Shown here one piece after another: positions 1,100 to 26,821 of a stretch of 64,000 bases of DNA. The translations under genes were made by a program, and so were the position numbers. Position 1 is the first letter of the stretch, and each line of letters begins with the position of its first letter. A model generated the notes under the pieces. That model was not told where the DNA came from. It did not search any database and saw only the letters and a list, made by a program, of their open reading frames with translations. The stretch is from Spirochaetota bacterium (lineage in GTDB: Bacteria; Spirochaetota; B62-G9; DRHN01), in NCBI GenBank assembly GCA_016934265.1, contig JAFGTF010000022.1:9172-73171 (forward strand), written 5' to 3'.

Positions 1100-2698
1100 G
1101 TGGGTTTGATGGAGGATAAGGATATTACACAGGAGATCGGTGTCGCCGAGCTGCAGACGCAGCAGGAGCGGCCGTCCTATATCAGGGACTGGCTGCGTAA
1201 GAACACCTTCCATCACACACAGTTCGATGATGTCAGGCGGCTCGTCGCACTGAAAAAAAAACAGAAAGTAGCTGTAAGCCTCTGTTTTCCAACCCTGAAC
1301 GAGGAAAATACGGTCGGGAGGGAGATCGCCCTGATCCGGGACGAGCTTGTCGAAAGGTATCCGCTCATAGACGAAATCGCTGTGGTGGACTCCGGTTCTA
1401 CGGATTGTACAAAGCAGGTGGCGGAAGAGGCGGGCGCGGATTTCTACTATTCGGGCGACATACTCTCCAAGTACAGGTTTTACCGCGGGAAGGGGGAGAA
1501 CCTCTGGAAAAGCCTCTATGCGCTGCGGGGTGACATAATCTGCTGGCTCGACGCGGATATCAGGAACATGCATCCGAGATTCGTACTCGGGTTGGTCGGC
1601 CCGCTCCTCGAGCATCCGGAAATATCGTACGTCAAGGCTTTCTACAAGAGACCTATCCGGTCGAAAGGAGAGCTCCGACACACCGGAGGCGGGAGAGTGA
1701 CGGAGCTCGTCGTCCGTCCGTTTTTCAATCTCCTCTTCCCCGAGCTCACCGGTATCGCACAGCCGCTCTCGGGCGAGTACGCCGGCCGCCGTGAACTTTT
1801 AGAGCGGCTGCCGTTCTTCACCGGGTACGGGGTCGAGGCGGGACATCTCATCGATATTCTCAGGATCTTCGGAATCGACGCGATCGGCCAGTGTGACATC
1901 GTGGTCAGGGTTCACAGGAACCAGTCGATTGAGGCGCTCCGCTCCATGTCCTACCGGATACTTAAGATACTTCTCCAGCGCGCGGACGACATGGGACGGA
2001 TAGAGATCTTCCAGGACCTGTCGGACTCGCTGCAGGTCATTACCGGGGTCAAGCGGCTCTACTCGATGGAGAAGATGAAGGTGTGGGGTACCGAGCGGCC
2101 GCCTATTATCTCGATACCCGAATACAGGGAAAAGCACGGTATTACGGTGGATACCTCGGAGAAAAGGGACAGGGAAGCGCTGAGGCCGCTCCCGTATACC
2201 GCTTCGCTCATGTTTCACGAGGACCTCGTGATTCCGCGGCTCAAAGGGCAGACGAAAGACGAGGTGATACGAGAGCTCGTCAGGGCGGGAAAAGAGCGTA
2301 TCCTCGACCTCGCGGAGGCGGAGAAAGAGCTTTTAACTTCCGGCGATGTGATCGAAACGCCGATCGGCAAGAACATCGCGCTCTTTCACGCGTTCGGGGC
2401 GTTCGTCGACGACATCGTACCGATCATAGGGCTCTCGCCGGATGGTATTGACATGAAGTCGCTCGACAGCGCGCCCATACATATCGCCTTGATGTTCCTT
2501 GCGCCCGAATACCTCGGAGAAATCTACAACAGGATAGTCGAGTCGTTCGCAAAGGTATTCTCACGGATGGAGCACTTCGAATGGCTGCTCCGGTGCGGGA
2601 CGCCGGACGAGATTATCGCATTCTACAGCTACCTCGAGGCGAAGAATAAAATAATGAAGATGCTCAGAATCGAGGATATACAGAGCATCTGCCTGTGA
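1100..2698 (+). CDS. gpgS: glucosyl-3-phosphoglycerate synthase (GT81, GpgS-like) fused to a C-terminal PTS EIIA type-2 (PtsN/EIIA-Ntr-like) domain
   Basis: Residues ~55-350 match Mycobacterium GpgS: 'PTLNEE', 'DSGSTDCT', 'RGKGENLWKSL...WLDADI', 'GGGRVTELVVRP', 'QPLSGEYAGRRELL', 'GYGVEAGHLID', 'RVHRNQ'. Residues ~370-532 show a PTS_EIIA_2 fold with a candidate phospho-His in 'GKNIALFHAF'. Confidence 0.8.
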   Translation: MGLMEDKDITQEIGVAELQTQQERPSYIRDWLRKNTFHHTQFDDVRRLVALKKKQKVAVSLCFPTLNEENTVGREIALIRDELVERYPLIDEIAVVDSGSTDCTKQVAEEAGADFYYSGDILSKYRFYRGKGENLWKSLYALRGDIICWLDADIRNMHPRFVLGLVGPLLEHPEISYVKAFYKRPIRSKGELRHTGGGRVTELVVRPFFNLLFPELTGIAQPLSGEYAGRRELLERLPFFTGYGVEAGHLIDILRIFGIDAIGQCDIVVRVHRNQSIEALRSMSYRILKILLQRADDMGRIEIFQDLSDSLQVITGVKRLYSMEKMKVWGTERPPIISIPEYREKHGITVDTSEKRDREALRPLPYTASLMFHEDLVIPRLKGQTKDEVIRELVRAGKERILDLAEAEKELLTSGDVIETPIGKNIALFHAFGAFVDDIVPIIGLSPDGIDMKSLDSAPIHIALMFLAPEYLGEIYNRIVESFAKVFSRMEHFEWLLRCGTPDEIIAFYSYLEAKNKIMKMLRIEDIQSICL

Positions 2699-2883
2699 AA
2701 GGCATCTGCCTGTGAAAGGCCGCGTCGGCGCCGCAGCTTCTCCGTGCATAGGATGCCGATACTGTCAACGCGTCGGCGCCGCAGCCCCTCCTCCCTAGGA
2801 TGCTGCCCCTTCCAACGCGGCGGTGTGTAACGCGCTCGATCCCCTACGGGCGGGAATGTATAGATGCGATCCCTCCCGAGGGG

Positions 2884-3066
2884 TCATTCTTCCTGGAACT
2901 CGAGCGCCATCTCAAGCTCCTCTTCGGTTATCGCACCCATTCCGATCAGTATCTCGCCGAGACGCTGGCTCGACGACTTCTGTATCTCGATCGCCTCGGT
3001 GAGATCGTCTATCGTGATCATTCCCGATTCCATGAGGACCTGACCGATCGGTTTTTTTTCGGGCAT
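2884..3066 (-). CDS. standalone MshEN-like (T2SSE_N-type) small protein, 60 aa, with tandem c-di-GMP-binding-type motifs
   Basis: ATG at 3064-3066 sits behind an AAAGGAGAAAG RBS. Two 24-aa motifs separated by a 5-aa spacer: 'PIGQVLMESGMITIDDLTEAIEIQ' - KSSSQ - 'RLGEILIGMGAITEEELEMALEFQ'. This fits the MshEN consensus RLGxx(LVI)(LVI)xxG(LVIF)(LVI)xxxxLxxxLxxQ. It is the last gene of the DUF39 / NIL-ferredoxin operon. Confidence 0.5.
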   Translation of the reverse strand: MPEKKPIGQVLMESGMITIDDLTEAIEIQKSSSQRLGEILIGMGAITEEELEMALEFQEE

Positions 3067-3125
3067 CAGCTTTCTCCTTTCTGACTGTCGGGGCCACTCT
3101 ATAAACCGGCGGTAAACCTGGAAGC

Positions 3126-3545
3126 CTACTCGATCATCTCCATCGCCATATACGGACAGGACGGTATACAGAGGCCGCAGCCGATACACTTCTCCTCGAC
3201 GAATTCGACCTCCATTCGCTCGCGGTCGGAGATGCTCAATGCCGCGGTAGGACACACGACCGTACACGCGCTGCAGTGGGTGCACCGTTCGTCGATACGC
3301 CTGATGATCTTGGAAACCGGCTTGAAAGATATGCCGAGCTCCCTGAGATAGTCCAAGCCGGCGTCGATGTTCTTTTTTTTACCGGATATTTCGATCACGA
3401 GCGTCCCCTCCTCGTCCTGGTCGATACGCGCCCGTGTAATATTCACCGTGATATCGTACTCCCGGATGAGGTTCGATATGATCGGCTTGTCTGCGAGCTT
3501 CCTCGGGTAATGGAGCATGATGTTGCGTGTCGGGTTCTGTGTCAT
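3126..3545 (-). CDS. NIL-domain 4Fe-4S ferredoxin (COG2122 family; homocysteine biosynthesis partner of DUF39)
   Basis: N-terminal NIL domain, then two CxxCxxCxxxCP clusters ('CTHCSACTVVCP', 'CIGCGLCIPSCP'). The start overlaps the stop of the upstream DUF39 gene (ATGA). Confidence 0.8.
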   Translation of the reverse strand: MTQNPTRNIMLHYPRKLADKPIISNLIREYDITVNITRARIDQDEEGTLVIEISGKKKNIDAGLDYLRELGISFKPVSKIIRRIDERCTHCSACTVVCPTAALSISDRERMEVEFVEEKCIGCGLCIPSCPYMAMEMIE

Positions 3546-4753
3546 GACTCATCACCTCCTTCGGGCCTGATAACGAGCGGCTTGAAGGTCTGTCCGGACT
3601 CGGGGCCCGGTATCGATTCGACCTTCTCGCTCAGCAGGAAACCGCCCTGCTGTATCCATGACTTCAGCGTCACTGCGATCTCTTTCGCTAAGGGGTAGCT
3701 CGAAAGCGAGCCGGTGGGCACCTTCTTCCCCCTGATGGTGACGGTCCCGCTTTTGAGATCACGGTAGCTCACCTTCGTGATGGTACCCGGTTCCCGTTTC
3801 GGATATGTGGTGGCGTAGTCGACTACCGGAGCGAGGATATCGGCGTCCGATACGCTCACGAATCCCGCGATCTCCTCGTCTAAAACCGGGATGGGAATCC
3901 CGATCCCCACGGCGAGGCTCACCCCGTATCCGAGCATCGATACGCCGCGTATGAAGCGCGTGTTCATCTGTTTCATGTCGCCTATCACGCAGATCGTGCC
4001 CGCGCCCTCGGTGGGAACGCCGTTTTTCCCGCGTTCCGCGGTAGGATTATGCTGGGTACCCTCCCAGCTGACGCGGCCCGTGCCCCCGCCGAGGAAAATC
4101 TTCGTCCCGATGCCGATCGTGCGGTAGTATGGATCGTTCAGCAGGGGACTGAGCTGCCCGGCAGAGCAGTAGTTTGCGTTGCCGATATGCGGCTGGAGTA
4201 TTCCGAGGTAGGTGTAGATGACCTTGGGAGAGGTGTTCACCGCGACGTTGTAGTTCTGGTATCCGTTTCTCGGGTTTAGCAAAAACGCCTGATTCAGGTC
4301 CTTGATATTGACATAGGTGTCGAGTTTTTTTCTCGGGTAGCAGTCCGTACCGTAGGATGTCGCCCGCAGGAACACGTCCCTGCCTGCGATGAGGTCCTCG
4401 ATTACATGCCCTCCCCCGTACCTGAACCTCCCCGGGTGTATCTTGTTCGCCGGATCGTCGTCGGGAATCTCCGTGGCGCCTATATAGACATCACAGGCGG
4501 CGATGCCTCCGTAGGCGAATACATCGTTGAGCCACGCTTTCTGTATTTTCATGCGGGGCGACGGGTGTCCGAAGTTGAGAAACGCGCCGGACGAGCACAT
4601 GGGGCCGAACGTACCGGTGGTTACCACATCGACCTGTTCCGAGGCCTTCTTCAGGCCGTTTTCATTGACATAACCCACTATCTCCTCTGCGGTGAAGATG
4701 CAGGCCTTCTTCTTTTTGATCCGTTCGTTTATTTCCTGTATAGTCTTTGCCAT
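3542..4753 (-). CDS. DUF39 / COG1900 homocysteine biosynthesis protein (L-aspartate-semialdehyde sulfurtransferase family)
   Basis: About 400-aa protein beginning 'MAKTIQEINERIKKKKACIFTAEE...' with conserved 'GGGHVIEDLIAG' and 'GTKIFLGGGTG' blocks. Start chosen at the ATG at 4753 behind an AAAGGAG RBS. It is paired with the NIL-ferredoxin as in the MA1821/MA1822 system. Confidence 0.8.
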   Translation of the reverse strand: MAKTIQEINERIKKKKACIFTAEEIVGYVNENGLKKASEQVDVVTTGTFGPMCSSGAFLNFGHPSPRMKIQKAWLNDVFAYGGIAACDVYIGATEIPDDDPANKIHPGRFRYGGGHVIEDLIAGRDVFLRATSYGTDCYPRKKLDTYVNIKDLNQAFLLNPRNGYQNYNVAVNTSPKVIYTYLGILQPHIGNANYCSAGQLSPLLNDPYYRTIGIGTKIFLGGGTGRVSWEGTQHNPTAERGKNGVPTEGAGTICVIGDMKQMNTRFIRGVSMLGYGVSLAVGIGIPIPVLDEEIAGFVSVSDADILAPVVDYATTYPKREPGTITKVSYRDLKSGTVTIRGKKVPTGSLSSYPLAKEIAVTLKSWIQQGGFLLSEKVESIPGPESGQTFKPLVIRPEGGDES

Positions 4754-4860
4754 AAGACGCTCCTTTTGTTGTTTGTAGTTTGTCGGCAAAAACTATCCAT
4801 GCCCCATAACATCGGTCCTCACCCCCTTGTGATACGAAAGTATTAACGTTGCAAAGAGCG

Positions 4861-5343
4861 CTATCGTTTGTAACCGAACTTCCTGAGAAGGGTCTTTCTC
4901 TCTTCCGTTTCCCCTTCTGATTCTACGCCTTTCGGCATGGACCCGTCGATGACTCCCAGTACACCTCGGCCCTGCTGCGTCTCGCCCACAATAACCTCGA
5001 GAGGATTCGCGGTGGCGCAGAATATGTGCACGACTTCCCGCACCGCCTTGATTGAGGGAAGTACGTTTATCGGAAAGCCGTTCTCGAGAAAGATGACGAA
5101 GATGTGTCCTGCACCGATACGACGGGCCGTATCGACCGCAAGCCGTGTGAGCTTTTCGTCGTTGCCGTCCTTTCTCGTAAGGCAGACCCCGCTCGCTTCA
5201 TTGAAGGCGATGCCGAACTTTATGTGCGGCGATGTATTGACGACCGCCTCGTAGAGGTCCTCAATGCTCTTTATGAAGTGGGTCTGGCCGACTATGATGT
5301 TCGCCCCTTCAGGAATGTCGATTGCGACGGTTTTGATCTCCAT
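4861..5343 (-). CDS. adenosine-specific kinase family protein (PF04008-like), 160 aa
   Basis: Fold-family recognition from 'MEIKTVAIDIPEGANIIVGQTHFIKSIEDLYEAVVNTSPHIKFGIAFNEASG'. The call rests on moderate similarity only. Confidence 0.45.
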   Translation of the reverse strand: MEIKTVAIDIPEGANIIVGQTHFIKSIEDLYEAVVNTSPHIKFGIAFNEASGVCLTRKDGNDEKLTRLAVDTARRIGAGHIFVIFLENGFPINVLPSIKAVREVVHIFCATANPLEVIVGETQQGRGVLGVIDGSMPKGVESEGETEERKTLLRKFGYKR

Positions 5344-5471
5344 ATCCCACCTCCGGCGTCCGGTGCGTAAGTATCTGTAATAGTAGTATAGGTCGCTCCT
5401 TTTGCAAACAGATTTTTATACCTTCCAGCCTGTAAATAGTATTACTATGTACGAAAAAGGCGAGGGGGCGT

Positions 5472-6548
5472 ATGATCGCGGTGACGGGAGGAGGAACGGG
5501 AGGGCATATTTTTCCCGTCTTCGCGCTCATAGAAGAGCTTTCACGCCGCGGGCATCGTGATATTGTCTGGATCGGTTCCAAGGCCGGAATTGAACGGGGC
5601 TGGGCCGAAAAGGCGGGTGTTCGCTACCGCGGAATTGCGACCGGAAAGCTCAGGCGATATTTTTCCCTGCGAAATCTCACCGATCCCTTCAAGGTGGTAA
5701 TCGGTCTGCTCGAGTCGTTTTTCTTTTTCCTCGGGAAGAGACCTCAGGTCCTCTTCTCGAAGGGGGGTTTTGTGTCGGTACCTCCCGTGCTCGCCGCTCG
5801 GCTCCTCGGGATTCCGGTAGTCACCCACGAGAGTGACACCGTACCCGGACTCGCCACGAGGATCATCTCGCGCGGCGCATCGGCGATCTGTGTCGGGTTT
5901 TCGCACACACGTGACGCATTCGAGGGAAAAAACGTCGTATGGACGGGGAATCCGGTTAGATCCGATGTACTGGACGGCGACGGCGACAGGGGCAGATCGT
6001 TTTTGGGGTTTTGGGACGATCTTCCGATGGTGTTCGTCGTCGGAGGGAGCCTCGGGGCCCGGATCCTGAATGAAACGGTCTGGGCGCTGTGCGGCGAAAC
6101 AAACGGTTTCAATATCGTCCATCAGTGCGGCAGAGGCAACAAAAAAACGGGTATGGATGAAAACCGGCACTATCGCCAGATCGAGTTCTTAGAGGACCGG
6201 ATGGGAGACGTCCTCGATGCGGCAACGGTCGTGGTATCGCGTGCGGGGGCGGGGGCGTTGTACGAAATAGCAAGCCTCGGCAAGGCGTCGATCCTGATCC
6301 CGCTTCCGCTGTCCGCGAGCAGGGGCGAGCAGATCGAAAACGCGCGCTATTTCGAGGCGCACGGCGCCTCGGTAGTCATCGCGAACGAGAATCTTACCCC
6401 CCATGCGCTCGAGGAGGCGATTCAGTCCCTGCTCGCGGACGGGCCACGGCTCGAGACGATGGGGAGGGAGGCGAAAAAGCTCGTTCGTAAAGACGCCGCT
6501 TCCGCGATTGCAAAGATCCTGGAAGGGTATCTAAAGCGGAAACAGTAG
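5472..6548 (+). CDS. murG: undecaprenyldiphospho-muramoylpentapeptide beta-N-acetylglucosaminyltransferase MurG
   Basis: 'MIAVTGGGTGGHIFPVFALIEEL' G-loop, 'VTHESDTVPGLATR', C-terminal 'GGSLGAR...RAGAGALYE...LIPLP' donor-binding motifs. GAGGGGG RBS. Confidence 0.85.
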   Translation: MIAVTGGGTGGHIFPVFALIEELSRRGHRDIVWIGSKAGIERGWAEKAGVRYRGIATGKLRRYFSLRNLTDPFKVVIGLLESFFFFLGKRPQVLFSKGGFVSVPPVLAARLLGIPVVTHESDTVPGLATRIISRGASAICVGFSHTRDAFEGKNVVWTGNPVRSDVLDGDGDRGRSFLGFWDDLPMVFVVGGSLGARILNETVWALCGETNGFNIVHQCGRGNKKTGMDENRHYRQIEFLEDRMGDVLDAATVVVSRAGAGALYEIASLGKASILIPLPLSASRGEQIENARYFEAHGASVVIANENLTPHALEEAIQSLLADGPRLETMGREAKKLVRKDAASAIAKILEGYLKRKQ

Positions 6549-21116: not shown

Positions 21117-21359
21117 GGCAATGATCCATTATGACATGAATTCGAAGCGATGTCTTCTTTTTTCCGGCTGATGTCGCGCGATGTATACGGGAGTGCATAC
21201 TTTGTCTTTATCGTGAAAAATATTACATGTCAACGCCCGGCATCGTAGACCCCCAGACTGCGGTGGATTTTACAGAAAATAAATGATAGAATAGAAACAA
21301 TAATCGAACCGGTGTATCGAGAAAGACCGGTTTCATGGAAGCGCTCGAGGAGCGGGATC

Positions 21360-24300
21360 ATGAAATTAAAATTAAGCCAAAAAATATTGGTACTGTACAT
21401 TGCGACCAGTATCGTGATACTGGGAGCAATTTGGATCTTGCTTTCATCAATCCTGAGAAGAGACACGTTCGAGACGTTGCATACGGAGTTTCAGAACCAG
21501 CTCATGCATATCGATTACGCGTTGACTACCTTATTAGAGAATGTCGAACAGGATCTAGAAACGATCTCCCGAAACGAGGCCGTACGCTCGAGAGACGATG
21601 AGGATTTCACCTTCTTCCTCGATGCGGATGAGAGCACTTTTCACTATGAATACGGGGACCTCGAGAAGCGGATAATAACGATTTTCAACAGTTACAGAAC
21701 CACGCATCCGTATGTGAATTCCGTCTATATGGGTCGGGAGAACGGAAGCTTCGTTCGTTCGCATCCGCGTGCGAGGCCGACCGAGTACGATCCAAGAACG
21801 CGTCCGTGGTACGTCATCGGAAAGGAAAGCCATGGAAGGGCCGTGAGAACGCCGCCGTTCCGATCGGTAACCACACCGGACGTAACCGTAGACTATGTGA
21901 AAGCGCTCATTGATTCCGAAGGACAGTGTTACGGTGTCATCGGGATCGGTATCACTCTCAATGAGTTAACCGAATACCTGTCGAACTTCAACCCCGGTTA
22001 CGGCGGCAGGATGTTTCTGGTGGATGAAAAGGGCACGATACTCGTAAATCGGGGCGCCTTTGAGCGGTTTACCCATATCAAGACGTATAATGAACGGCTA
22101 TACCACGACCTCATGGAGAGGAATGAGGGGTATTCCCTGTTCGAGGAGAATTCGGTGCTTTCGTATGCATTCTTTTATACCTCCCCGGCTCTCGGCTGGA
22201 AGATAGCGGCCGTCATTCCTAAAAAGAATATCGAAAGAGCGGATAATGCGGCGGTGTTCAGAGTCTCCCTTGTCTTGTTTTTGGCTCTCGGTCTGCTCAG
22301 CGGCCTCACGCTTTTCGGGGTCGACCGTTTTATCATAAAGCCTATTACACGGCTCGACGAAGGCGCGGACCTCATTACGCGCTCCGGCAATCTCGATCAC
22401 CGTATCATGCTCGATACCGGCGATGAGATAGGACATCTGGCACGGACCTTCAATGGAATGATCGTCTCGATTAAAAAGGCGGAAAAAGAGCTTAAAAAAC
22501 ACCGTGATCATCTCGAGGAGCTCGTTCAGGAGAGGACCAGCGAGCTGAGCAAGTTGACCCAGGCCGTCGAACAGAGTCCCATATCGGTCATGATAACGGA
22601 TAGAGAGGGGAAAATAGAGTATTTCAATCCGCAGTTCATCGCTGAAAGCGGATATTCATCCTCGGATATTATCGGAAAAAGCCCCGAGCTCTTCGTGTCG
22701 GACGAATACGAGAGGTCCTTTTTCGACGAAGTGTGGGATACAACATCCAAAGGCGCTATATGGAGAGGAGAGGTTCTGAACCGGAGGAAGAACAACGAGG
22801 TATACTGGGCGAGCATGTCGGTATCGCCGATCTACAGCGATGATGAAGAGATCACTCATTTCGTCGCCACATACGAAAACATCACGGAGCGAAAGAGGGC
22901 GCAAAAAGAGCTCATCCTCCACGACAGGTTCATGGAAGGAACGGCGGAGGCGGTGACAGAGCTGATCGTGAACAGGGATGTGGGAACCGCAATGCAGAAT
23001 GCAATCAGGATATTCGGCGAAAAGATCGACGTGGACCGGTCGTATATTTATAAGAACCATACAACCGGCGACGGAAGACACGCGATGAGCCAGATATTCC
23101 AGTGGAGTTCCGATTCCGACACCCAGATTATCGACAACCCCGAGCAGCGGAATATTCCGTATGACGGTACCTTTACACGCTGGTACGATACGTTTTCCAA
23201 TCGGGAGCTCATCTCCGGTAGAATAGGCGAATTCCCGAATACGGAACGGGAGGCGCTTGAATCGAGAAGGGTGGAGTCGATGATCGCAGCGCCGATCTTC
23301 GTACGGGACAGTTTATGGGGATTTACCGGTTTCGACAACCTGAAGGAGTCCACAGGCTGGTCGGAAAGCGAGAAGACGATCTTTCTTGCATTCGCCAATA
23401 CTCTCGGTAAGGCGATTACGGGCGCACAGGACGGGATCGAGCTTAAGAAAGCGAAAAAGGCCGCCGAGAAGGCCAATCAGGCCAAGAGCGAGTTTCTCGC
23501 AAACATGAGCCACGAGATACGGACACCGATGAACGCCATCATGGGAATGACCCACCTCGCGCTGCAGACGGAGCTGACGTCGAAGCAGCGGGACTATCTT
23601 TCGAAGATCGATCTTTCGGCGCGTTCTCTTCTCGGGCTTATCAACGACATACTCGATTTTTCCAAGATAGAAGCGGGGAAGATCGAGATCGAGTCGGTGG
23701 ACTTTTATCTCGACGACGTCCTGGACAACCTGACAAGTCTCGTCGAGATGAGAATCGATAAAAAGGATCTCGAGTTCCTCTTCGATATACAGCCCGACGT
23801 TCCCCTGTCCCTCGTCGGCGATCCCCTGCGGCTCGGCCAGGTCCTTTTAAACCTCGCAAGCAACGCAATCAAGTTCACCGAGCGCGGAGAGATTGTGGTT
23901 AAGGTAGCGCTTGTTGAAAAAACGGAAAAAACGGCGACATTGAAATTCTCGGTCAGCGATACAGGCATAGGGCTGAAAGAGGAACAGATGACGATGCTTT
24001 TCAAGCCTTTTTCTCAGGCAGACGGGTCAATCACACGAAAGTACGGGGGCACCGGCCTCGGGCTGACGATATCAAAGCGCCTCGTTCGGATGTTCGACGG
24101 AGAGATAGGGGTCGAAAGCGAATACGGGAAGGGGAGCACGTTTTTCTTTACCGCAAAGTTCGGGCTTCATACAAAGAAGAAACGGCGCAGCGTTCTTTCC
24201 AGGGAGCTTGAGGGTATAAAGGCTCTCGTCGTCGACGATAACAAGACATCTCTGTATGTTTTGAAAGGAACGCTCGAGTCGTTCGGACTCGACGTTTCCC

Positions 24301-25715
24301 TCGCGGAATCCGGTGAAGAAGCGCTCGATGTCATGAGAAACATGCCCCACGAAGAGCCGTTCGATCTTGTGCTCATGGACTGGAATATGCCCGGCATGAA
24401 CGGCGTCGAGGCGTCCATGCTCATCAAACAGGACAGGGGGATTTTTAAAGTTCCCACCATTATCATGGTTACCGCATACGGTCGAGAAGAGGTGCTGCAA
24501 CAGGCGGAAGAAGCGAAGCTCGATCTCTTTTTAACCAAACCGGTAAGCCGGTCTGCGCTTTTCAACCTTATTATGGGGCTGCTCGGCAAAGGGGCTCCTG
24601 AGGCGGTGAGGTCGGTTATTAAAAAGGAGGGTTATATCGAGGCGGTACGGCGGATCAGGGGTGCGAGGATCCTCCTCGCGGAGGACAACGAGATCAATCA
24701 GCAGGTGGCGAAAGAGCTTCTTCAGGGAGTGGGGCTCGAGGTGGCTATCGCACAAAACGGGAACGAGGCGGTCGAGAAAGCGCTGAGCGGCTCGTACGAC
24801 GCGGTGTTGATGGATATCCAGATGCCGGAGATGGACGGGCTCGAGGCAACAAAAAGAATACGATCGAGCGGGAAAAAAGGCGCGGATACGGTACCCATTA
24901 TCGCCATGACCGCCCACGCGATTGAGCAGGACCGTGAAAAGAGCCTCGAGGCGGGAATGAACGATCATATAACGAAACCGATAGATCCGACCGAGTTCTT
25001 CTCTACGCTCGTTCGATGGATTTCTCCCCGGATGATCCGAACAGAAACCTCACCGAAAGAAAAAAAAGCCGCCCCCAAAGAGGAAAACGCGCCGTTTCCC
25101 GTCACCCTGACGGGAATAGACGATCATAAAGGCCTCGCACGGGTCGGGGGCAACGCCGTCGTGTACAAAGACCTCCTTTTGAAGTTTAAAAGGGATTTTT
25201 CCGAAAGCGGACGCAGCATCGAGAATGCAATCGAAGAGGAGGACCTACATACCGCCCGATATTTGGCGCATACGATAAAGGGTGTCGCGGGCAATATCGG
25301 GGCCGAAGGGCTGTATCGTGCCGCATCGACGCTGGATGACGCGCTCAGAGAAAAAAGAGTTGAAAATGGGGACAGAGTGATCGAAAATTATAAGAAAGAA
25401 CTCGATATGGTGGTGCGGTCGATTACTCTTCTCGAATCGACGGGTGACGGGAAGCATCGAGAAGATACGGAATCTAGAGGGAGTGGGAGCCCGAAGATTC
25501 TTCTTGCGATTTTATTGCGACTCGAGCTGCATATCAGAAAAAGCCAGCCGAAAGGGTGCGTGCCGCTCATCGAGGAGATAGAAGCGTTTTTGTGGCCGGA
25601 AGAGTACGTGAAAGATCTACGAAAGCTGGTACGGTATGTTAAAGGGTATAAGTTCGGGGAGGCGCTGGGTGTACTGGAATCGATGAAAGGCAGGCTGGAG
25701 AGGGGGGGCGGATAA
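21360..25715 (+). CDS. hybrid sensor histidine kinase / response regulator (double Cache - HAMP - PAS - GAF - HisKA - HATPase - REC - REC - HPt), 1451 aa
   Basis: TM '[20 protein letters not shown]'; a periplasmic Cache-like region; HAMP; PAS ('[21 protein letters not shown]'); H-box '[17 protein letters not shown]'; G-boxes 'SDTGIGL...[11 protein letters not shown]'; two REC domains ('[12 protein letters not shown]', '[12 protein letters not shown]'); an HPt domain ('[15 protein letters not shown]'). ATG at 21360 with a GAGGAG RBS. Confidence 0.9.
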
Positions 25716-25720
25716 CGGGT

Positions 25721-26821
25721 ATGAAAAAAAAGGCGTCGGTCCTTGTAGTGGATGACAATGAGACCAATATCGACATACTCATGGGAATCCTGGGCGACGA
25801 GTACGAGGTGAGCGTCGCGCTCGACGGAGAACGGGCGCTCGAAGTCGCCGGGGAACAACCGCCTGATATCGTCCTGCTCGACGTCATGATGCCCGGCATG
25901 GACGGCTATGATGTGTGCAGGAGGCTGCAGGAGAAAGAATCCACAAGAAAAATACCGGTGATCTTCGTCACCTCCAGGGGCGAGGTCGAAGACGAGGCAA
26001 TGGGGTTCGAGGCCGGAGGAGTGGACTATATCACCAAGCCGGTGAGCCCGTCTATCGTTCGCGCACGGGTACGAACACATCTCAATCTGAAACGGTACTC
26101 CCAGGAGCTCGAGCATCAGAACGAGGTCTTGAGGGAGAATGCAAGGCTCCAGGAGGAGATCGAGCAGATAAACCGCCACGATTTGAAGAACCCGCTTTCC
26201 GCCATGATATCCATTCCCAGAATGATTATCGAGAGGAACGGGGTAACCGAACGGCAGAAAGACCTCCTGCTGTTGATCGAGGAGGCGGGCTACAGAATGC
26301 TCGATTTGATAAACCGATCTCTCGACATTATAAAGATGGAGCGGGGCATATATCATATAGATCCCGTCCCGGTGAATATGGTGGAGGTGTTCGAGAAGAT
26401 ACTTAGGGAGATCAAGCCGATCACCGACGGCAAGCACATACCGGTCACGCTGTTTCTGCGGGACAAGCCGGTATCAGGCGGCGAATCGTTCCGCATCACC
26501 GGAGAAGAGTTTCTCTTCTATTCCCTGTTTGTGAATCTTTTGAAAAACGCGGTGGAGGCGTCGCCCGACGGTAGGCCCGTAAAGGTATTTTTCGAAGGGG
26601 TGAAACGTCCCGTCGTCAGGGTTACAAACGACGGTGCTATCGCGGAAGAAATTCGAGGGCGTTTTTTCGACAAGTTCTGTACCTACGGCAAGAAAGGCGG
26701 CACCGGTCTCGGCACGTATATCGCGCGGCTGATAACCGAGACCCTCAGCGGCAAAATCGGCTTCGAGACCTCAGAAGAGACGGGTACGACTCTTACGGTA
26801 ACGTTTCCTCCATCCCTCTAA
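25721..26821 (+). CDS. response-regulator receiver fused to a histidine kinase (REC-HisKA-HATPase)
   Basis: REC 'VLVVDDNETNIDIL...VLLDVMMPGMDG'; H-box-like 'RHDLKNPLSAMIS'; ATPase 'GGTGLGTYIARL'. Confidence 0.85.
   Translation: MKKKASVLVVDDNETNIDILMGILGDEYEVSVALDGERALEVAGEQPPDIVLLDVMMPGMDGYDVCRRLQEKESTRKIPVIFVTSRGEVEDEAMGFEAGGVDYITKPVSPSIVRARVRTHLNLKRYSQELEHQNEVLRENARLQEEIEQINRHDLKNPLSAMISIPRMIIERNGVTERQKDLLLLIEEAGYRMLDLINRSLDIIKMERGIYHIDPVPVNMVEVFEKILREIKPITDGKHIPVTLFLRDKPVSGGESFRITGEEFLFYSLFVNLLKNAVEASPDGRPVKVFFEGVKRPVVRVTNDGAIAEEIRGRFFDKFCTYGKKGGTGLGTYIARLITETLSGKIGFETSEETGTTLTVTFPPSL

Follow-up and report, generated by a model that had tools for sequence, protein, structure and literature searches.

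A free-standing MshEN_N-type mini-protein, a predicted c-di-GMP receptor, encoded behind homocysteine-biosynthesis genes in a Spirochaetota bacterium

The 64,000-nt stretch analyzed herein (the window) comes from a Spirochaetota bacterium (assembly GCA_016934265.1, contig JAFGTF010000022.1, positions 9,172 to 73,171). On its minus strand, a mini-gene for a 60-aa protein (2884..3066) lies behind two genes of an alternative homocysteine route, a DUF39/HcyBio gene and a gene for a NIL-domain ferredoxin (together, the DUF39-NIL pair). The mini-protein is a free-standing MshEN_N-type domain, for which a four-helix-bundle fold is predicted. We propose, with moderate confidence, that it is a trans-acting receptor of cyclic di-GMP (c-di-GMP) and that, in one sub-clade, its gene became part of the DUF39 transcript by capture. 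Its place behind the homocysteine genes is best read as the result of this capture and does not speak for a dedicated homocysteine role.

A 60-residue MshEN_N-type protein under purifying selection

The mini-protein reads MPEKKPIGQVLMESGMITIDDLTEAIEIQKSSSQRLGEILIGMGAITEEELEMALEFQEE, and its ATG is preceded by AGGAG at a distance of 8 nt. An earlier note on this DNA had described two 24-aa repeats separated by a KSSSQ spacer, and these were found exactly as quoted. Motif I occupies residues 6–29 (PIGQVLMESGMITIDDLTEAIEIQ; 2980..3051, minus strand), the spacer residues 30–34 (2965..2979, minus strand; conserved as K-S-[ST]-x-Q in the family) and motif II residues 35–58 (RLGEILIGMGAITEEELEMALEFQ; 2893..2964, minus strand). 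The NCBIfam model NF053729.1 ('c-di-GMP_motif, MshE-related'), a 53-position model titled 'cyclic di-GMP-binding domain-containing protein, MshE-related' with a curated cutoff of 38 bits, matched the protein over model positions 1–53 of 53 with 67.8 bits (E 5.3e-19). Two divergent family members likewise scored above the cutoff. In a phmmer comparison with PDB sequences, the mini-protein matched PilF of Thermus thermophilus (E 6.7e-16) and MshE of Vibrio cholerae (5HTL, E 2e-5).

The predicted structure agreed with this assignment. The AlphaFold2 model, built from 42 homologues, had a pLDDT (predicted local distance difference test score) of 92.2 and four helices at residues 7–13, 19–30, 36–42 and 48–58. 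Its best Foldseek match was the c-di-GMP-bound MshEN of V. cholerae (5HTL), with a root-mean-square deviation of 0.6 Å over 54 columns, 35% identity and a TMq of 0.87; PilF GSPII-B was also among the best matches. The Pfam model T2SSE_N (PF05157) gave no match to the mini-protein at E<=1, because that model spans a longer two-subdomain unit and the mini-protein consists of the N-terminal subdomain only. The chain stops 2 residues past motif II and carries neither the T2SSE_N1 (MshEN_C) subdomain nor an output domain. We considered the missing T2SSE_N match as an argument against the domain assignment and rejected it, since the absence of the C-terminal subdomain explains the lack of a match. 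The absence of both the T2SSE_N1 subdomain and a PF05157 match indicates an MshEN_N-only protein and not a full MshEN. The fold proposed in the earlier note, T2SSE_N/MshEN only, was thus borne out for MshEN_N by NF053729.1, phmmer, AlphaFold2 and Foldseek, and was not recovered as a Pfam T2SSE_N match.

The mini-gene belongs to a family of equally short genes. The first search returned 41 homologues, all short proteins, and a search with the family profile returned at least 248 clusters at E<=1e-6, of which the 120 listed all measured 52–108 aa. All family records bearing an organism name were metagenome-assembled genomes of Spirochaetota. Among 21 distinct orthologue coding sequences, the pairwise ratio of nonsynonymous to synonymous substitution rates (dN/dS) had a median of 0.089 and a maximum of 0.25; synonymous sites were near saturation, with a median proportion of synonymous differences (pS) of 0.76 against 0.16 for nonsynonymous ones (pN). 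Given the family of short homologues and the low dN/dS, the mini-open reading frame is, as judged from sequence comparison, a real gene, expressed as a protein and under strong purifying selection. Public records hold the family as 'hypothetical protein' or under unsupported labels. No profile supported the Joint Genome Institute (JGI) labels 'predicted transcriptional regulator' and 'PilB' given to family members, the Sta1 match (E 0.011) being below its cutoff, and we discarded both labels.

Predicted competence for c-di-GMP binding

Wang et al. (2016; PMC5013675) describe the MshEN binding motif as two copies of RLGxx(L)(V/I)xxG(I/F)(L/V)xxxxLxxxLxxQ. Their relaxed motif admits [RKPN] at position 1, the spacer is non-conserved in MshEN, and isolated V. 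cholerae MshEN_N 1–62 bound c-di-GMP with a dissociation constant (Kd) of 0.35 μM (PMC5013675). In the mini-protein, motif II fits the strict motif, in agreement with the earlier statement that the second repeat lies near the consensus, and motif I fits the relaxed 24-residue motif. In the window and 97 loci, the mini-protein was the only open reading frame (ORF) that matched the relaxed motif in tandem.

The strict consensus has Arg at position 1 of both motifs, whereas the mini-protein has Pro in motif I and Arg in motif II. This Pro is not disqualifying because the relaxed motif admits it and because two PilF domains bind without Arg: GSPII-B has K and L at position 1 and a Kd of 6 nM, 'not relying on arginine residues', and GSPII-C has Pro (P335) and a Kd of ~0.3–0.5 μM. 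The replacement of R by P in the first repeat had been pointed out before; it is present and, given the [RKPN] motif and the GSPII-C precedent, harmless. The other key positions of Wang et al. are present in both motifs, namely Gly 3, the hydrophobic triads (2, 17, 21), the turn Gly 10 and Gln 24. The predicted 'Leu triads' of the mini-protein are I7/L51/L55 and L36/L22/I26. XpsE and PilF GSPII-A keep an MshEN-like fold and do not bind nucleotide; the mini-protein contains none of the XpsE-type inactivating substitutions.

Conservation across the family followed the same positions. In motif I, G8, L11, G15 and Q29 were invariant, and position 1 varied (P/L/Q/S/K) and was never Arg. In motif II, G37, L40, L51 and L55 were invariant and Q58 invariant or nearly so; its position 1 (R/K/M) and turn Gly (G/D/N/E) varied. 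Family-wide, the triad positions stayed hydrophobic, and the position-3 Gly and terminal Gln were invariant or nearly so. From motif and fold, we infer that the mini-protein binds c-di-GMP, which makes it a predicted receptor.

Conservation also extended beyond the ligand motif. In the spacer, K30 and S31 were invariant and Q34 was conserved at >=90%, even in members only 53% identical. Further family-specific conserved residues were D20, E27, E49/E50 and F57, and the proteins end in an acidic tail that differs in length between members. Together with the spacer, these features hint at a second interaction surface, probably an electrostatic one, that would receive a basic partner.

Gene order and transcription around the homocysteine genes

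On the minus strand of the window, the genes follow the order PF04008 gene (4861..5343), 107-nt gap, DUF39/HcyBio, NIL-ferredoxin, 59-nt spacer and mini-gene. The HcyBio gene (3542..4753) encodes 403 aa that match Pfam PF01837 with 500.9 bits (E 2e-150), and begins with an ATG preceded by AAGGAG at 7 nt. The NIL-ferredoxin gene (3126..3545) encodes 139 aa with a NIL domain (PF09383, 68.7 bits) and two PF00037 Fer4 stretches (2x[4Fe-4S]). Its ATG overlaps the HcyBio stop by 4 nt (ATGA), which indicates that the two genes are translationally coupled. The earlier note had the minus-strand coordinates and peptide strings of the three genes exactly right. It had also called the mini-gene translationally adjacent; this did not hold, since the spacer (3067..3125, minus strand), which contains the AGGAG ribosome-binding site (RBS) of the mini-gene, parts it from the NIL stop.

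Both parts of the pathway pair are thus present and adjacent. DUF39 and the NIL-ferredoxin form an alternative homocysteine route known from genetics in Desulfovibrio and Methanosarcina (PMC5764234), so the pathway proposed for the pair in the earlier note was upheld by the Pfam matches and that work. The window HcyBio was 58–92% identical to its counterparts at 80 loci across many phyla. By family assignment, it is the sulfur-incorporating enzyme of the route from aspartate-semialdehyde to homocysteine, the function of the family being that given in PMC5764234. A COG2122/PRK04334-like gene was not found in the 64-kb window by tblastn with the PRK04334-type protein of locus L021 (comparison loci carry L numbers), and may lie elsewhere in the genome. 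The PF04008 ('Adenosine_kin') gene upstream matched its model with 241.8 bits and had no NCBIfam match; the family ('adenosine specific kinase') is essentially uncharacterised, and our literature search on PF04008 function returned nothing usable.

The convergent gene on the other side of the mini-gene (1100..2698, plus strand) encodes a glucosyl-3-phosphoglycerate synthase (GpgS; NF010496, 371 bits) fused to PTS_EIIA_2 (PF00359). Between the PF04008 gene and this GpgS-EIIA gene, the mini-gene and the DUF39-NIL pair varied independently. The order PF04008, DUF39, NIL and mini-gene, usually followed by convergent GpgS, was found in the window, L001-4, L018/L100, L019 (the complete chromosome CP070841.1), L098, L099, L136/137 and L129/130. 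Counted by lineage, the same-strand order DUF39-NIL-mini occurs in 8 (the window, L001, L018/L100, L019, L098, L099, L136 and L129), with gaps of 15–200 nt. In contrast, in ~13 lineages (L005-17, L101, L102, L105-114, L131-135) the mini-gene stood straight after the PF04008 gene without DUF39-NIL. Locus L022 had the PF04008 gene, an SDR gene, DUF39 and NIL, with convergent GpgS 86 nt on and no mini-gene; L127/128 combined an SDR gene and DUF39-NIL with a mini-gene on the opposite strand; and L103/104 had the PF04008 gene, an SDR gene and the mini-gene. The PF04008 gene was the upstream same-strand neighbour at all syntenic loci of the main clade, and convergent GpgS-EIIA was the usual downstream neighbour, not adjacent in L129 or L103. 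The slot between PF04008 and GpgS is thus a rearrangement hot spot, holding the mini-gene alone, DUF39-NIL-mini, SDR with DUF39-NIL, SDR with DUF39-NIL and an inverted mini-gene, or SDR with the mini-gene.

Outside this slot, the two elements were found apart. Three other Spirochaetota loci (L020, L021, L023) carry DUF39-NIL elsewhere, adjoining a PRK04334/COG2122-like gene. L020 stems from the sample that also yielded L006, whose slot is free of DUF39, which suggests that such genomes may have DUF39-NIL-COG2122 at another place. Among 74 DUF39 loci of other phyla (adjacent NIL gene in 52; pair flanked by at least 700 nt of sequence on either side in 47), none had a homologue of the mini-gene, as evidenced by an unfiltered hmmsearch at E<=10 and by two versions of a motif regular expression; the usual third gene there was a COG2122-like one, present at 30 of the 74. 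Divergent stand-alone members of the mini-protein family (~53–60% identical; L115-117, L122, L124-126) lay in unrelated contexts. Since the mini-gene is constrained where no DUF39 stands beside it, and DUF39-NIL is kept where the mini-gene is absent, these results argue against a conserved partnership. Conservation of the mini-gene next to DUF39 operons elsewhere, which the earlier note had named as a check, was thus confined to one Spirochaetota sub-clade, so that the association mostly failed. The functional tie of the mini-protein to sulfur amino-acid biosynthesis suggested in that note was not supported, given the ~13 DUF39-free lineages, L022, the inverted mini-gene of L127 and the 74 loci of other phyla.

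Genes of the large MtaA/CmuA-like URO-D family lie at L124 (5295-6476), L122 (192-1388) and L021 (2432-4982). We considered a second link to methionine through these URO-D/MtaA-like genes, which stand beside the mini-genes of L124 and L122 and the DUF39 gene of L021. The proteins were paralogues with 33% identity, and we treated the association as coincidence.

The upstream regions of the mini-gene differed between these arrangements. Nearly all DUF39-free lineages had a TATAAT/TATACT -10 box 20–90 nt upstream of the mini-gene, whereas no sigma-70-like site of at least 8/12 was present upstream of it in the window, L001, L018, L098 or L099. The best match in the 59-nt spacer of the window was 7/12, and that of L019 was 8/12; a promoter and terminator scan of the window spacer (3067-3125) gave nothing convincing. 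The gap between NIL and the mini-gene is 59 nt in the window and 15–27 nt in L129 and L001. In L001, a canonical hairpin and T-run terminator was present only after the mini-gene. A strong RBS preceded the mini-gene in all lineages. Given the short gaps, the lack of an 8/12 promoter and the L001 terminator, co-transcription of the mini-gene with the homocysteine genes, as the earlier note had proposed, is plausible in the window lineage. On these consensus matches, the arrangement resembles the outcome of an insertion followed by loss of the mini-gene promoter more than it does a designed operon.

The convergent intergenic spacer between the mini-gene and GpgS (2699..2883) contains a stem-loop directly past the mini-gene stop, without a U-tract. 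A structured RNA or terminator in the 2690-2890 region was considered and rejected (fold z-score -1.8, not significant). When 2500-5700 was scanned against Rfam for a riboswitch or another RNA element ahead of the HcyBio gene or the mini-gene, only a chance miRNA match came back. The same spacer holds an exact 17-nt direct repeat, GCTGCGGCGCCGACGCG (2721-2737 and 2769-2785, minus strand), with its copies 48 nt apart; none of 100 shuffles contained two matches, and the window had no further copies.

Other genes of the region were recorded as well. The GpgS-EIIA fusion (1100-2698, plus strand) is kept throughout the clade. Behind it come genes of the GH13 alpha-amylase family, GT1 and HAD; together they may form a regulated cluster for a glucosylglycerate-type compatible solute. 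The syntenic block shared by the clade also retains a gene for a cNMP-binding-domain protein (PF00027; 8782-9480, minus strand). At 21312-26821 (plus strand), the window encodes two signalling proteins, first a hybrid sensor kinase of 1467 aa (dCache-HAMP-PAS-GAF-HisKA-HATPase-REC-REC-Hpt) and then a protein with REC-HisKA-HATPase architecture; neither showed a domain for c-di-GMP turnover.

Explanations for the mini-gene and comparison with known systems

In the explanation that we favor, the minimal 53-residue four-helix bundle would bind one c-di-GMP molecule, as in the MshE/PilB-type ATPases. With no fused output domain, the mini-protein would act in trans as a small diffusible receptor or adaptor, and its ligand-bound form would engage another protein through the conserved spacer, the acidic helix 4 and the C-terminal tail. 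The mini-gene would be an autonomous gene of one Spirochaetota clade, residing in the rearrangement-prone slot between the PF04008 gene and GpgS-EIIA. In the sub-clade of the window, the DUF39-NIL pair would have landed directly upstream, and the mini-gene would have lost its own promoter and now be read through from the DUF39-NIL operon. The simplest history consistent with the gene orders is one insertion of DUF39-NIL upstream of a pre-existing mini-gene, a direction that we infer.

Several observations weigh against this explanation. The mini-protein has a net charge of -10 and a pI of 4.1, and its relatives range from -9 to -13, whereas the equivalent segments of proven binders range from 0 to -2; the basic patch described round the ligand by Wang et al. 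(2016) is cut down to K4, K5 and R35. No GGDEF, EAL, HD-GYP or PilZ motif was found among the ORFs of the 64-kb window, and no GGDEF motif in 524 kb of clade loci, which cover mostly the same region and say little about the genome. The gene neighbourhoods give no consistent candidate for a partner beyond the shared synteny. As for the history, the neighbour-joining tree of PF04008 and MurG, midpoint-rooted and without outgroup or bootstrap, united the loci whose slot contains DUF39 into a single clade, among them L022 (mini-gene lost) and L127 (mini-gene inverted), and put L129 outside it on a long branch. An ancestral presence of DUF39-NIL followed by several losses is possible. Furthermore, the DUF39-NIL-mini adjacency was kept in fairly divergent lineages (L129 and L136, mini-protein identity ~63–68%), and a functional coupling specific to the sub-clade is possible. 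The promoter calls are sigma-70-like consensus matches at a threshold of 8/12.

Three other explanations were weighed. A nucleotide-blind small acidic protein that serves as an adaptor between proteins, or mimics a ligand of a basic protein, and merely keeps the MshEN_N fold, strikes us as unlikely. It would account for the net charge of -9 to -13, the acidic tail, the position 1 that is never Arg in motif I and is R/K/M in motif II, and a spacer that is conserved, unlike that of MshEN, which suggests a different constraint. It also has precedents in XpsE and PilF GSPII-A, which do not bind, and in the N-terminal domain of Xanthomonas citri PilB, which binds a PilZ protein (7LKM, among the Foldseek matches). 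However, the hydrophobic-triad, Gly and Gln positions are all kept under strong purifying selection, no known inactivating substitution occurs in the mini-protein, and the Arg-free motifs of PilF GSPII-B bind at nM affinity. Still less likely is a mini-protein that binds c-di-GMP, has no partner and, as a buffer or sink, determines how much c-di-GMP is free. The lack of an output domain in a minimal binding module would suit such a role, and the strong RBS of all lineages is compatible with high expression, but a 1:1 sink would require a very high copy number, and the conserved residues outside the ligand motif (K30/S31/Q34, D20, E27, E49/E50, F57), together with the acidic tail, point to an extra surface. 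This is the explanation to which we give the least credence.

We also doubt, only slightly less strongly than in the case of the buffer, that the mini-protein is a dedicated sensor of c-di-GMP or a related nucleotide that regulates the DUF39/NIL-ferredoxin pathway and is co-transcribed for that reason. The one-strand DUF39-NIL-mini order of 8 distinct lineages, the lack of a promoter-like site for the mini-gene in most of them and the position of the L001 terminator speak for such a role. Nevertheless, in the ~13 sister lineages a strongly conserved mini-gene persists with a -10 box of its own and no adjacent DUF39, the mini-gene is missing from L022 although the pair is there, and in L127 it is inverted. 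At L020, L021, L023 and 30/74 loci of other phyla, a COG2122-like gene is used, with a mini homologue at 0/74, and the known pathway needs no such component (PMC5764234). We therefore retain the captured, trans-acting receptor as the favored explanation.

A broader proposal is that these ~60-aa proteins are a novel kind of c-di-GMP receptor, minimal and diffusible, and correspond within MshEN to the stand-alone PilZ proteins, and that in the sub-clade of the window capture into the DUF39 operon ties their abundance to methionine or sulfur status; we offer it as a speculation with a low chance of being correct, though not as low as that of the dedicated sensor. If it were true, second-messenger signalling would there be linked to sulfur amino-acid metabolism. 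Only two or three c-di-GMP receptor domains, MshEN among them, are widely distributed, and all characterised examples of MshEN regulate a fused output domain. For a protein that consists of the bare 53-residue unit, the choice would be between signalling in trans and buffering. The mini-protein would then be smaller than any other natural receptor of c-di-GMP and would lend itself as a scaffold for biosensors. For homocysteine biosynthesis, our results reveal no new regulatory layer, and the sulfur link appears largely an accident of gene order. They also call for caution, as operon membership in a single genome can stem from recent rearrangement.

Compared with the described pathway, comprising MA1821/MA1822 of Methanosarcina acetivorans and DvMF_1464/0262/0044 of Desulfovibrio vulgaris (PMC5764234), the window has the same DUF39 and NIL-ferredoxin families. 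The third gene differs: the known set is DUF39 and NIL with or without COG2122, whereas the MshEN_N mini-gene stands outside the described pathway.

Among characterised MshEN_N domains, that of V. cholerae (5HTL; PMC5013675) resembles the mini-protein in its two 24-residue motifs, 5-residue spacer and four-helix bundle. There, however, the bundle forms the N-terminal end of a type IV pilus ATPase, with T2SSE_N1 coming next, whereas here the bundle is the whole protein. The mini-protein further differs in beginning motif I with Pro instead of Arg, in its net charge (-10 vs ~-1), and in its conserved spacer and acidic tail. The GSPII domains of T. thermophilus PilF were the best PDB sequence match, and GSPII-C begins with KPLGEIL, which resembles KPIGQVL in the mini-protein. 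Unlike the mini-protein, these domains are near-neutral parts of an 889-aa ATPase in which C-terminal subdomains reinforce the ligand contacts.

A related architecture is that of cce_1044 of Cyanothece. Supplementary Table 4 of Wang et al. (2016) gives it as (MshEN_N)2, under 'MshEN_N only, no T2SSE_N1 domain', and mentions no further domain. That protein is cyanobacterial and has two tandem MshEN_N domains, whereas the mini-protein is a single domain of 60 aa. The 'MshEN_N only' table of Wang et al. lists (MshEN_N)2 and several fusions and no single-domain stand-alone form (PMC5013675). We found no description of a single-domain stand-alone MshEN_N protein in the searchable literature. The family is known to NCBI as a domain model, and, as far as its sequences tell, the stand-alone architecture, the charge and the implied mode of action differ from those of known MshEN_N domains. 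Stand-alone PilZ-domain receptors, such as MapZ of Pseudomonas aeruginosa and PlzA of Borrelia, are small single-domain proteins that act in trans on other proteins. Their fold and binding motif are unrelated to those of the mini-protein, and the analogy is a functional one only.

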